Notes: generated by a model not told the origin, from the letters alone. A stretch of DNA of 63,951 nt, filler included, from Octopus bimaculoides (GCF_001194135.2; 5 parts of 5 records of this genome joined end to end with filler, not necessarily neighbours in it), one strand, 5' to 3'. Shown: positions 5,789-57,975, counted from the whole stretch's first letter. Program-made: numbers and translations.

Positions 5789-6000
5789 AATACATAATTT
5801 CTTAACTCGACAGCTGTTTCAGGACCACCAGTGGTGCTCCTTTTCACTAAATTGGCCTCATCATTACCTTCCCCTTTTTGACTGTTTACTGGTTGCATAC
5901 CCAAGTCTTTTGCACATTTCATCTGAAAATTATGAATATCACGATTATTACACAAATCCGAATTTCCTGAAACAGCTGTCGAGTTAAGAAATTATATATT
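5789..6000. repeat. 36-bp inverted repeat (5789-5824 / 5965-6000); each arm resembles the 3' half of a hammerhead
   Basis: aatacataatttcttaactcgacagctgtttcagga versus its reverse complement with 1 mismatch; each arm contains GAAA-CAGCTG-TC-GAGTT. Confidence 0.85.
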
Positions 6001-6224
6001 CTCTTCTGAGTATCTTCTATTTTTTGTTCCTTATAGAAATATGTTTGTATGTATGTATAAATGTGTGTGTGTGTGTGTGTGTGTGTGTGTGTGTGTGTGT
6101 GTGTGTACATGTATGTGTGTATGTATATGTTTATTTTTGAAATCATGTAGTTATATGTGTCTGTATGAAGTTGCATAATACATACATACACATATATATA
6201 TATATATATATATATATATATATA

Positions 6225-6425
6225 TGGGAGAATTTACGAAAAAAACAACAGACGAAGACAGGTGGTGTAAACAATAAATGGATGTATTAGTTTAACGCTC
6301 AGGAATAGAGAAAGTCTTTGATGTTTCGAGCTACGCTCTTCAACTGAAAGGAACACAGAAAGAAATAAGGAGAGAAACAAGGAGAAAAAATATATAAATG
6401 TAGTGGTCAGCGATCTACGAAAGAA
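6225..6425 (-). mobile_element. ~200-bp Penelope-LTR-like repeat with a degenerate hammerhead motif, abutting (TA)n
   Basis: Homologous to 21830-22160, 25298-25372, 34655-34790 and 53815-54000. Minus strand reads CAGTTGA-A-GAGC-GTA-GCTC-GAAACATC. Confidence 0.7.
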
Positions 6426-6624
6426 AAAGGCGCTCAAGACATTTACTAGGAGTTACATGCAATAATATTTAAACCAGTCTGATTCGGGTTTATGCAACTT
6501 AAAGTTTCGCGAGCTCCCAGCAAAAACCTGTCTCGTTCATGCTTGAATTACCGAAAGAGACACAGGTAATCCAATATGGCTATTGGAAAGTGGGCTGCTA
6601 TTAGTCCAGGTGAGTCACATGGTA

Positions 6625-6905
6625 TTGTCAGAATAAGATCAGCGATTCAGCAACAGCTGTTCCATTAGAAAAGGGAGTTTCTAACGGGGTGAGAATGGAA
6701 GACCCGGATGAGGATGAGTACAAGTACCTTAGGATCCTGGAGCTGGACAATACCTTGCACAAACAAATGAAAGACAAGGTCATCACTCCATATCTGGAGC
6801 GCCTCAAACTTCTCTTGAAATCAAAACTCAACTCAAGGAACCTTGTGACTATCATCAACATATGGACTGTTGCTGTAGTTCGTTATAATGCACCCATCCT
6901 GAAAT
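6625..6905 (+). mobile_element. R4/Dong-type non-LTR RT C-terminal fragment
   Basis: EDEYKYLRILELDNTLHKQMKDKV..YLERLKLLLKSKLNSRNLVTIINIWTVAVVRY matches the post-YxDD region of R4-clade RTs. Confidence 0.8.
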
Positions 6906-7039
6906 TAGACACAAGTGGAGATCAACCAACTCGATTGCACTACCTAAAAGACAATGACAGTGCATGTCTAACGTTATCATTTATAGTGTTTTTAGTATCA
7001 ACTGATGGTCTACCTTCATAGGGTTCTGTGTACCTAGTT

Positions 7040-7660
7040 TGCTGGTTTGAGTTAGTGATTTCAGAGCATTTTTGCGTGTGAGTATAAGTGAGTGTGTGTT
7101 ATACTGAGCTGACTTTTGACTGATCTAACTATTTTACCAATTTTGCTGTCAGTTAGTCTTCTATTTTTTAGGATATCACGTCTCACAGCTCCTAGTTTAT
7201 TACTGTCCATCTGTCCATGTACAGCTTGCTATGCGGGGTTTTGCACCTCCAGATATTGTAGGTCTTTTTTTTTTGCGTGTGGCTGATGTTTCTGGGTTTA
7301 GTGTTGAATAATAATAAGCATGCATAACCTTGATATATTCCTCTTTAATCCATTTCTGTCTTGTATTTCTGTTTCTTTGAGATAGGTTTGGTAGTTGATC
7401 CTGAGCGTCAGTTCCGGGAATATCCCTGGTTTAACTTGCTACAGGTTCTTGACGAAGTTGGTCCTGATTTAAAGACTTTTCGAGCTCAGTGTCAGAACCT
7501 AAGGTCACTAACGAACCCGTTCTCTGAACGATACGGGTTCTAGGAGGTATTTCCATGGTCGGTATCCAAGGCCGTGCTATAAGCACATGGGGTTAACCAG
7601 TTGTCTGGGTCCTTGGGTAAGGTTCAGAGGTCCCAGGCATCATCATTTTCCAGGGGAGGG
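7040..7660 (-). mobile_element. R4/Dong-type element 5' region (ORF N-terminus)
   Basis: Minus translation RQKWIKEEYIKVMHAYYYS...NKLGAVRRDILKNRRLTDSKI resembles the conserved R4/Dong N-terminal block. Confidence 0.65.
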
Positions 7661-7929
7661 ATTTATTTTATGAAGTTTTAAATTAGTTCATGTCATGACC
7701 TGCCAAAGAGAGGCAGATATTGAATTGACAGCCAGAGGGAGACAGTGACAGGGAGACGAAAGACAGAACTATCATACAGTCTCCAACTAGCATTAGCTCC
7801 GAGCTATTTCCATTAGGATGGTGATGGCGTTGGCGGCGGCGGTGGTAGAAGTGGTAATGGGATTGTATATGTTCTGTCAGCAGGATGTAAACGCTGTCGC
7901 ATGTGCGTTTGTCCCCAGTCAAATCACTG

Positions 7930-8029
7930 AGTAGTAGTAGTAGTAGTAGTAGTAGTAGTAGTAGTAGTAGTAGTAGTAGTAGTAGTGGCAACAGCAGCAG
8001 CAGCAGTAGTAGTAATAGTAGTAGTAGTG
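7930..8029. repeat. (TAG)n/(CAG)n microsatellite
   Basis: Direct reading. Confidence 0.95.
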
Positions 8030-54995: not shown

Positions 54996-55079
54996 CTATA
55001 TATATATATATATTTGTGAATGTTGCTGAATGACAGATGACTGATCTTATATAATATCGTCATATCTTGAATGTTTGTA

Positions 55080-55335
55080 CTGAATGTGCGGGTGGCACAT
55101 GAGATGCACCATTTTGAGCGTGGCCGTTGCCAGTACCGCCTGACTGGCTCCCGTAGGATTTTCGAGCGAGATCGTTGCCAGTGCCCCTGGACTGGCTTGT
55201 GCGGGTGGCACATAAAAGACACCATTTCGAGCGTGGCCGTTTTCGTGCGGGTGACACGTAAAAGCACCCACTACACTCTCTGAGTGGTTGGCGTTAGGAA
55301 GGGCATCCAGCTGTAGAAACTCTGCCAAATTAGAC
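55080..55335 (+). mobile_element. Young, CpG-rich family F tail repeat
   Basis: Similarity to 46680. Confidence 0.8.
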
Positions 55336-55528
55336 TNNNNNNNNNNNNNNNNNNNNNNNNNNNNNNNNNNNNNNNNNNNNNNNNNNNNNNNNNNNNNNNN
55401 NNNNNNNNNNNNNNNNNNNNNNNNNNNNNNNNNNNNNNNNNNNNNNNNNNNNNNNNNNNNNNNNNNNNNNNNNNNNNNNNNNNNNNNNNNNNNNNNNNNN
55501 NNNNNNNNNNNNNNNNNNNNNNNNNNNN

Positions 55529-55845
55529 TGTGTGGAACCTTGGGCAAGTGTCTTCTATTATAGCCTTGGGGCAACTAAAGCTTTGTGAGTGGATTTGGTA
55601 GACTGAAACTGAAAGAAGCTTGCTGTATGTGTGTGTGTGTGTATGTGTGTGTGTGTGTGTTTCTGTGTCTATGTTTGTCCACCCACCATTGCTTGACAAC
55701 TGACGTTGGTGCATTTACGTACCCGTAACTTAGCAGCTCGGCATAAGAGACTGATAGAATAAGTCCTGGGGTCAATTTGTTCAACTAAAGTTGGTGCTCC
55801 AGCATGGCCACAGTCAAATGACTGAAACAAAGAATAAAAGAATAT
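55529..55845 (+). mobile_element. Family B SINE (head lost in the gap)
   Basis: Similarity to 12079. Confidence 0.85.
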
Positions 55846-55996
55846 ATATTGTATATATAGTGTATCTTGCGTGTATAAATAGATAGAGTTCCACATGAAT
55901 TATCATCATTGTGTCTGCTTCCAGTGAAGTAGTTAAGCAACTACTATATATTGTGTATCTTGTTTGTATAAATAGATGTAGGACTGCTATCATTGC

Positions 55997-56076
55997 GAGA
56001 GAGAGAGAGAGAGAGAGAGAGAGAGAGAGAGAGAGAGAGAGAGAGAGAGAGAGAGAGAGAGAGAGAGAGAGAGAGA
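55997..56076. repeat. (GA)n microsatellite
   Basis: Direct reading. Confidence 0.97.
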
Positions 56077-56099
56077 GTAGAGCTGCAGAAAGCGTAAAA

Positions 56100-57975
56100 A
56101 CAAACCTTAAAGCTTTCTATAAATTTGCAATATCAGAATATCTGAAGAAGGAATTTTATTCCGAAATATCATCAGACTATGGATGACTAAATTACAACAT
56201 GTATATAGTCCATTGTTTGTATTATAGTGTATTGTTGTACCATTCAAAACTTTTTATTCTTTACAAACAATACACAATGCTTCAAGCGATCTACAATACT
56301 CTCCAATCTCTATGCCTGGGTCAGGCTGAGTTCGCAACTGTTAGGGAGTCGATGAAGCTATCTAAGAAACATGCTAGAATCAGATGCCAAATAAACTTTC
56401 TTAAACGCTGCCTAAAAAACAACATAATTTCCAACACCTTCAGGAACATACATCTACCCTCGTGTTTCTGCAGCCTTACCCTTCGACGATCACTGAAATA
56501 CATACATATGTTCATCATCAGAAAAATCATACGCCATCTACACCAACAACTACATGAGCACATACGCAAATTCTCTGAAATAATATCCAGCATCATGTCA
56601 ACCATTGAACATACATACCAAAGAACAACTGCAGCAATTGACTGATGCTACCACCACTGCATTGACGAAGAGAAGAGATGCCTCAACTTAAATTCCAGTG
56701 GCTTTGTATCGAATACCGACACAACTCGGCCCATTACACCGACACAGATGAACAGTACATGTCCACCGAACAAGATAACACTAACACTGAGGACGCCAGC
56801 ACACCATCAGCAACGAAATCCCTAGGCACAGACTTGAGTGGGTCACTCTCCCATGAAGAACTAGAACTTCTCAGTCTGGGCCTTAAATTTATCTTGAGCC
56901 AACAGCTGAATGAAAAATCTTATTCGACCTGGAAGCCAACTTTTGTCAAACAGCCTACCAACTCAATTGGCTATCGGTGATAAAGAAGAACAATAACACA
57001 CTCACTCCCCTCTACCCACTCTCAACGAACCAACCAAGAACTCAACCACAAACTATCCAGATTAAAACAGTCTATCTCCAACATCTTAAGGAAGGAATTG
57101 AAAATAACTCCAAACTTAACCAAGGCACAATGTAAAACACCGACTAAACTAAAAAAACAAAACCTTTGTATACTTACTGTCAGAAAAAGGAAAAGAAATC
57201 TGCGTGATTTCTTGTGAAATATATGATAGACTGGCACAAGAACATTTAAGCAATGACAGGCTTTATTCTGAAGTGACCGATATAACTGCAACCGGGATTG
57301 AGGACCGAATTAACACCGCATGGACGGACATCTGTAGAAGGAAACAACTACATAGCAAATACAAGAACAACTCCATCACAAAGAACAGTAGATTACCCAG
57401 ATTTTATCATCTCATTAAAACATACAAGAATAGCAACACGATCCAGATTAGACCCATCATCTCCAGTGTGGAAGGACCGCTATATAAAATATCCTGGTTA
57501 CTTTCTCACATCCTGAAGCCCATACTCTCCACCTTTCCTGAACACATCAAGAACTCCGACGAAGTCATCAAAAGACTGCACCAATTGCCCCTAGACCAAC
57601 CCAGACAAAACAGATATGCCTTTAGTCTTGATGTTGTCTCAAGGTACACAACGGTACCAGCACACTTGGTGGTCAACCTATTGACTGACTGCATAATTAG
57701 CGTCCGACATCCAATGCTTCAGACTTACAGCAGCTGATATACATCAACTTTTGTCCCTCATCGTGTACAACACCTACTTCTCATTCCAGGACCACATATA
57801 CATACAAACAACAGATCTCCCCATGGGATCCAGTCCCTCGGGCCTACTAGCCATCACTTATATGAACCATCTGGAACGTCGAGCACTCAAAATCTGTCAT
57901 ACTGGTGAAGAAGGCGCTCATGCGCCTTCTTCACCAGGTATGTAGATGACATCCTCATACTCACATCTTCCTCTA
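56100..57975 (+). mobile_element. Penelope-like retroelement, 5' region plus RT (disrupted; GIY-YIG end missing)
   Basis: QINFLKRCLKNNII, LSHEELELLSLGLKF, LPRFYHLIKTYK..IRPIISSV, FSLDVVSRYTTVP, DLPMGSSPSGLLA..YMNHLE, FFTRYVDDIL (57939-57950). HHR-like motif at 56142-56170. Confidence 0.92.

Follow-up and report, generated by a model that had tools for sequence, protein, structure and literature searches.

Small type I hammerhead ribozymes (HHRs) whose third stem is a short palindrome are already known. In the portion of Cervera and De la Pena (2014; PMC4209133) available to us, such motifs recur with a 9b base, a G10.1-C11.1 pair and a palindromic 15.2-16.2 pair and loop 3, form 4–8 consensus families per genome with thousands of solo copies and opposite-strand pairs 100–700 bp apart, and show low in vitro activity, as dimers only; the consensus in their Fig. 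S3, CUGANGAH G...C GAAAN Palind NU H, is shown with palindromes of 4, 6, 8, and 10 nt. The accessible text of Perreault et al. (2011; PMC3088659) describes repeat-type dimeric hammerheads in which a palindromic stem III or loop III allows the dimer to form, with up to 10 bp in Aedes. A 2019 review (PMC6765202), as far as its accessible part goes, likewise states this palindrome-dimer rule and cites small Penelope-like hammerhead variants with a short palindromic stem III that cleave as dimers (Lunse, Weinberg, and Breaker, 2016/17). Here we analyze a stretch of 63,951 nucleotides from Octopus bimaculoides (GCF_001194135.2; five parts of five records joined with filler; hereafter the window), a microsatellite-rich piece of animal DNA with 3,691 N, in which a sequence-only reading had noticed a recurring GAAA-palindrome-UH segment and had seen the best candidate for an under-described system. 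That segment follows the rule of the published consensus, and since both the design rule and the pattern of many families per genome are already in print (PMC4209133; PMC3088659), the system should not be called under-described. What the window holds is, very probably, a set of dispersed, mostly decayed type I hammerhead motifs likely to come from the pseudo-long terminal repeats (pseudo-LTRs; 3′ end pieces) of about seven Penelope-like families, in whose active parents two copies would pair by the palindromic stem III, the resulting double hammerhead cleaving the tandem transcript.

A comparison with dinucleotide-shuffled sequence, which the sequence-only reading had proposed for a genome-wide scan and which we made for the window, showed that complete motifs exceed chance. 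Using a strict descriptor (exact core, stem II of at least 3 bp, a Watson-Crick palindrome, and UH), we obtained 4 sites, whereas 50 local dinucleotide shuffles gave 0.08 (maximum 1), an excess of about 50-fold; when one core mismatch was permitted and a stem I of at least 3 was required, there were 5 sites against 0.06. One of the four strict sites, 56175 on the minus strand, was discounted as chance, being an antisense overlap of the plus-strand 56142 motif and lacking stem I. A palindrome-blind scan of the window, in which nothing 3′ of GAAA was used, returned 6 matches against 0.56 in shuffles; three of the six were palindromic and one more was a G-U near-palindrome, compared with 9% of the shuffled matches being palindromic. 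The 3′ segment alone is weak evidence, because bare GAA-palindrome-H strings with 4-nt (55 against 37.6, maximum 58) and 6-nt palindromes (16 against 10.0, maximum 17) fall inside the shuffled range; those with 8-nt palindromes numbered 13 against 3.0.

These counts bear on one rival explanation, in which palindromic, AT-rich repeats have produced the motifs by chance and the inverted pairs in the window are miniature inverted-repeat transposable elements (MITEs), a kind of DNA transposon. The window is indeed rich in inverted repeats and in remnants of DNA transposons, and the behavior of the bare 4- and 6-nt strings suits it, but for complete motifs it is contradicted by their excess over shuffles and by the palindrome-blind scan. 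Two observations described below also oppose it: a matching anatomy covaries beside related open reading frames (ORFs), and one motif lies at the expected place ahead of a Penelope-like ORF. We give the MITE explanation almost no credence.

All the GAAA-palindrome-UH segments cited earlier were recovered, with A15.1 at 35059 (+) for ACCATGGT, 54779 (−) for ATGGCCAT, 21895 (+), 34745 (+), and 53917 (−) for ACGT, 56166 (+) for ATAT, and 27422 (+) for AGATTT; the position given as 34744 should read 34745. We set aside the strings at 7449, 52281, 44175, 1396, 35256, 61830, and 63230 as fragments or chance matches, and the flanks of 63230 have no similarity to 5820 or 5969. An Rfam scan of the window gave 89 matches at E ≤ 1, none of them to a hammerhead family, although minimal variants may escape these models; the matches were microsatellite-driven microRNA and small nucleolar RNA families, plus a sub-threshold tRNA.

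Relaxed scans and alignments gave 13 motif-like sites in about seven families, a doubtful site at 59162 included. By their stem III segments the families are ACCATGGT (35007), ATGGCCAT (54844), ATAT (56142), AGATTT (27395), ACTATTAGT (21635 and its inverted twin 21151), ACAGCTGT (5820 and 5969), and ACGT (21872, 53939, 6346, and 34723). The full type I core (C3 U4 G5 A6 N7 G8 A9 / G12 A13 A14 A15.1 / U16.1 H17) survives at 35007, 54844, 56142, and 27395, while one or more core bases are lost at the other nine sites. The earlier figure of about 14 HHR-like motifs can be kept only if fragments are counted, and we infer that most copies in the window no longer cleave and are just passively transcribed. 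Three of the four intact-core sites have a perfect palindrome, and two of these three have a stem I of at least 4 contiguous pairs; contiguous stem I measures 5, 4, 2, and 3 bp at 35007, 54844, 56142, and 27395, respectively, and stem II reaches 4–6 bp or more in all ten folded sites. That stems I and II are unrelated between families, as had been claimed, does not hold for 21872, 53939, and 34723 (and also 6346), which are related to one another; independent families had therefore been overcounted.

The best-preserved motif (35002..35072, +) has an intact core with C3 at 35007, a 5-bp stem I, a long stem II, the 8-nt palindrome ACCATGGT, and A17 at 35067, with a microsatellite 118 nt downstream. 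The intact-core motif at 54767..54848 (−; C3 at 54844, A17 at 54771) carries the 8-nt palindrome ATGGCCAT and belongs to a medium-copy repeat of about 1 kb (54000..54995, −); in read data, the family's majority letters at 54790 and 54846 convert two G-U pairs to Watson-Crick pairs. The third (27392..27431, +) has a 9b base, a 6-bp stem II, the G-U near-palindrome AGATTT, and a 3-bp stem I, and the fourth, at 56142, is described with its ORF below. A motif with one core mismatch (21630..21685, +) combines a 5-bp stem I with the 9-nt near-palindrome ACTATTAGT and A17; a more decayed copy of its family lies at 21155–21107 (−). The site at 59157..59198 (+) is a possible degenerate motif with an intact 5′ core, GTAA replacing GAAA, and the near-palindrome ATGTAT, and its status is uncertain.

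Compared with the minimal hammerheads of PMC4209133, so far as the accessible part of that paper describes them, the motifs in the window have in common the type I core, an unpaired 9b base, G10.1-C11.1, a short stem I, and the palindromic stem III, as well as the occurrence of several sequence-unrelated families per genome, mostly as solo copies, and of opposite-strand pairs. The 9b base together with G10.1-C11.1 was seen in 56142, 27395, and four ACGT copies; it is absent from the long-palindrome sites 35007 (A-U), 21635 (A-U), and 54844 (G-C, no 9b); some variants in the literature lack it too. The stem III of the Hydra Poseidon motif in Fig. S3 of the same paper (CU AUU AGU, A17) is identical to that of 21635. 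There are also differences, as the cores shown in that part of the paper are all CUGANGA or UUGANAA, whereas the abundant family in the window has U6 or C4; the table, in the portion available, contains no cephalopod-like host, and the stem II inserts of 35007 and 54844 (42 and 55 nt) are much longer. Set against these descriptions, the 56142 motif is likely a Penelope pseudo-LTR hammerhead, and the other motifs would work like one.

The 56142 motif (56140..56172, +) has an intact core, 9b A, G10.1-C11.1, the ATAT palindrome, C17 at 56170, and 2 contiguous stem I pairs. It lies 135 nt before the start codon of a Penelope-like ORF and is likely a remnant of the 5′ pseudo-LTR. The ORF itself is dead (56277..57989, +), since an N-terminal domain and a reverse transcriptase (RT) are spread over several frames with stops, the ORF ends just past YVDD, and the endonuclease is absent. 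Its relatives are proteins with an RT and, at the C terminus, a GIY-YIG domain (RVT_1 in 6 of 7, a weak GIY-YIG match in 5 of 7, two of them above the cut-off), and the RT of the window is 46–59% identical to relatives carrying GIY-YIG. The sequence-only reading had suggested that the RT at 56–58 kb mobilizes the ribozyme-bearing repeats, but this copy is frameshifted, stop-ridden, and without endonuclease and cannot be the mobilizer; moreover, the motif and its flanks have no blastn similarity to the other families in the window. The broader link to Penelope fared better, as the ATAT motif precedes a Penelope-like ORF and similar motifs stand beside related ORFs. A 45-nt self-inverted stretch at 57898–57942, just before the YVDD of the RT, was considered as a ribozyme hairpin and rejected, as it is a small inverted duplication within the dead ORF. 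Past the end of the RT, 57990–58260 codes for a C2H2 zinc-finger-like peptide, which is probably the 3′ end of another long interspersed element (LINE).

We scanned 53 loci of relatives of this ORF. When stems I and II were required and the palindrome was not, there were 9 matches, 8 of them palindromic, against 0.2 in shuffles, and in the palindrome-blind scan 14 of 19 matches were palindromic, compared with 6% in shuffles. These 14 amount to about 7–8 distinct designs, because L003, L013, L043, L044, and L051, and likewise L034 and L035, are redundant. The motifs are found either downstream of the ORF or, in inverted orientation, upstream of it. At L003, where a 57-nt direct repeat fixes its place, the motif precedes the first Met by 113 nt; the distance in the window is 135 nt. 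In 11 aligned motifs of relatives, the pair 15.2-16.2 takes all four Watson-Crick forms (CG 4, GC 3, AU 2, UA 2); stems I and II covary as well, with a covariation score reached by 0 of 500 shuffles. As the 11 motifs were picked with a palindrome-requiring scan, it is the palindrome-blind scan that provides the unbiased test. A covariance model trained on these 11 motifs alone placed five short-palindrome sites, 53939, 21872, 34723, 56142, and 27395, at the top of its 13 matches in the window (E 0.04–0.32). Among the motifs at these loci, L034 2298, L035 573, and L036 2561 combine a U3-A8 core with ACGT and stand next to distant relatives of the RT, and L026 50 (minus) has a 12-nt palindromic stem III and A17 but no 9b base and stands upstream of a Penelope-like RT.

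Several copies in the window are arranged as inverted pairs. Three such pairs are head-to-head, with the 3′ ends, that is, the downstream side of the motif, outward. One is the duplication at 21062..21725, with arms at about 21062–21328 and 21422–21725, which carries the two ACTATTAGT-family copies. In the repeat with the 54844 motif, 54931–54995 is an inverted copy of 54111–54175, the 3′ part of the repeat (65 nt, 95%), and ends at (TA)n; these segments were also considered as an endonuclease C-terminus, a candidate rejected because the endonuclease profile was empty and an inverted 3′ piece fits better. The third pair (5764..6025) consists of 5764–5824 (−) and 5965–6025 (+), each arm with GAAACAGCTGTC plus a downstream tail. 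The ACAGCTGT segment had been noted in both arms of 5789–6000 and is present in both, with G12 at 5969 (+) and 5820 (−), but the arms are probably 3′ halves only, the plus arm being without a 5′ core and the minus arm having an A3-mismatched core, a 2-bp stem II, and no stem I. Inverted 5′-truncated copies have been described for Penelope-like elements in the part of Craig (2021) we could consult. In addition, 9 of the 13 sites have a microsatellite no more than 150 nt away, against a background of 25%, although the sites are not independent; a few of the cleavage-site positions used here were off by some bases, with no material effect on the distances. The inverted copies and microsatellite ends fit the anatomy of Penelope insertions.

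The mechanism we propose would run as follows. Two pseudo-LTR copies on one tandem transcript would form the dimer and cut after H17. Reverse transcription that stops short would then give rise to solo or inverted end pieces, which decay. Families without an adjoining ORF would descend from further Penelope-like lineages, as 5′ truncation during target-primed reverse transcription spares nothing but the end with the motif. The palindrome and stem I together may act as a family-specific code that keeps partners within one family, as the two copies of a double hammerhead pair the 5′ stem I strand of each with the 3′ stem I strand of the other. In agreement with the earlier view, the motifs are type I hammerhead-like and their palindromic stem III suits double-hammerhead folding. 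Among ten folded sites, 4-nt palindromes are predicted to form no stem III in the monomer and 8-nt palindromes just 2 bp. For 35007, the predicted double hammerhead reaches −50.6 kcal/mol, compared with −37.2 for two monomers and a dimer minimum of −50.8; for 54844, the corresponding values are −57.1, −54.2, and −64.9 kcal/mol, a marginal gain. By these models, dimer folding would be clearly favorable only for 35007 and marginally so for 54844.

Tandem units could also be of another kind. Animal retrozymes not flanked by long terminal repeats (non-LTR retrozymes) are tandem 170–400-nt repeats with one hammerhead per unit and circular RNAs, and, judging by the accessible parts of PMC7229834 and of Li et al. 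(2026; bioRxiv 10.64898/2026.07.22.740005), they resemble our motifs in being type I, with a weak stem III and a proposed origin from Penelope pseudo-LTRs. They include type I motifs with a 2-bp stem III and a palindromic tetraloop, and Li et al. count many solo monomers among them. A retrozyme is, however, by definition a series of tandem repeats in which every unit carries a motif, and the motifs here form no tandem array: none of the 41 tandem-repeat rows of the window overlaps a motif, and the closest related motifs on the same strand are 12.9 kb apart. We consider it highly unlikely that the window contains retrozymes and continue with pseudo-LTR pieces of Penelope-like families as the preferred reading.

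The ACGT family differs from the others in its core. Its four copies, one of which (6346) had been overlooked, form a superfamily with 72–88% blastn identity and a common GAGY/GCTC stem II. The copy at 53817..54000 (−) belongs to a very abundant family and has its motif at 53944–53908, where core position 6 is U and U17 is at 53913, and a 3′ tail of about 95 nt ending in (TA)n. The motif at 21868..21903 (+) also has a U6 core, and the copy at 6222..6420 (−; motif 6350–6316) combines U6 and A4 with a palindrome decayed to ACAT and a 3′ tail ending at (TA)n; the diverged motif at 34719..34753 (+) has A6 but C4. U6 thus marks all three window copies of one subfamily, and the other subfamily has C4.

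For the stretch 53820–54990, we compared reads from two raw RNA runs and contigs from two DNA sets; as the best word share was 0.37, the reads and contigs represent copies of the families rather than the window locus. Summed contig depth, which is no copy number, was 2.5 million over the ACGT motif and 13–17 thousand over the neighboring ATGGCCAT motif, a ratio of about 150–190. The genome probably holds many such repeats, and the large population of ribozyme-bearing repeats suspected by the sequence-only reading is accordingly probable. RNA depth at the ACGT motif was about 2,250 and 2,110, with similar mate orientations. Among the rows listed, the only variant at position 17 of this motif is U to C (in X21, 855 of 1190 and 832 of 1217 reads; in X1, about 1%), and none of them, with 87 more rows unlisted, concerns position 6, which suggests that U6 may be the majority across the family. 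At 53925, inside stem II, 307 and 205 RNA reads (98% agreement) depart from the ACGT element and run on in other letters that resemble its upstream part; this loose end seems to be an expressed variant without the 5′ half of the motif. Go-back joints, which bear on circular RNA monomers, were few, with 2–4 reads each.

Such a core may mean that the ribozyme has been given up. Some families, chiefly the short, abundant ACGT repeat, could be independent elements resembling short interspersed elements (SINEs) that depend in trans on a Penelope-like RT and can now do without cleavage, the motif being a passenger or an RT-recognition structure. The element is indeed short (about 180–200 nt here), ends at (TA)n, and far exceeds its neighbor in summed depth; the U6 and C4 cores and the variant at 53925 point the same way. 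Moreover, A6C strongly lowered Mg2+ cleavage in a tested hammerhead in the accessible data of Perreault et al. (2011; PMC3088659), and Craig (2021), in the part available, suggests that the motifs may be dispensable. On the other hand, the reads continue beyond 54000 with other letters, as truncated copies of a longer element would, and we saw neither a promoter nor a fixed 5′ end; besides, SINE-like elements would be a variant of the pseudo-LTR reading and not another origin. We regard SINE-like elements as possible but unlikely. A different view is that the U6 core, invisible to CUGANGA descriptors, is a catalytically competent new natural variant and that dispersed, passively transcribed copies cut host transcripts by pairing, in trans or across long introns, through a palindrome and stem I specific to the family; this we judge very doubtful indeed. 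The natural core variants in the portion of PMC3088659 available are U3-A8, A6C, insertions, U15.1-A16.1, and U4C, and U6 is not among them. A search of the literature on A6U hammerheads returned no hammerhead-variant paper by title among the matches listed. Since changes at position 6 are reported to impair cleavage, dispensability of the motif is more likely for the ACGT family than a new active core variant. Attempts to find the family elsewhere were negative: pattern searches gave 0 viral stretches and 3 prokaryotic matches, none similar to the window; a protein search with the translated ACGT copy, made to read position 6 in other sequences, gave no matches; and the Naiad consensus sequences of Craig (2021) contained none of four short family motifs, although line wrapping may hide matches.

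Several points weigh against an origin of all these motifs in the pseudo-LTRs of Penelope-like families, and against cleavage as double hammerheads. The covariance-model E-values (0.04–0.32) are individually weak. The Penelope-like ORF adjoins only one of the roughly seven families, and a profile of the clade's endonuclease tail was negative upstream of the remaining motifs (best iE 0.2, off-motif). The families were judged from the window copies and read data. The double-hammerhead fold is not the predicted minimum in 8 of the 10 folded sites, and the predicted cleavage sites of two families show no piled read ends in the two RNA runs, even at a depth above 2,000 at the ACGT motif. This last negative should be approached cautiously, as the reads stem from many decayed copies, possibly of a related species.

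The window has further features. A 12-nt palindrome, TTAATTAATTAA, stands alone between two N runs at 34861–34872 and is presumably an assembly gap marker. An inverted repeat at 28269–28633 (68 nt, 84%) surrounds a tRNA-like stretch at 28487–28559 (Rfam 26.2 bits, gathering score 29). Several abundant SINE-like families of 150–220 nt without hammerhead motifs occur at 8993–9436 and many other sites, one of them with more than 12 copies. Other inverted-repeat pairs are 61830–62018 with 62967–63156, 39422–39673, which to our eye resembles a mariner-type remnant, and 59028–59296. Two open frames have no Pfam match: 60149–60649 (+; 166 aa) is possibly a host exon, and 3531–4070 (+; 179 aa) is probably a LINE fragment.

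Among the papers listed in searches of the literature on hammerhead ribozymes in octopus or cephalopods, none describes these families by title or abstract; a paper on Octopus vulgaris repeats does not mention ribozymes, and 235 Rfam hammerhead-1 matches have been reported for the giant squid genome. Our analysis contributes unannotated Penelope-like families that carry hammerheads, from an animal genome rich in repeats. The part of Craig (2021) available to us raises the question of whether Penelope-like elements need their ribozyme, and a very-high-copy family with a non-canonical core would bear directly on that need.

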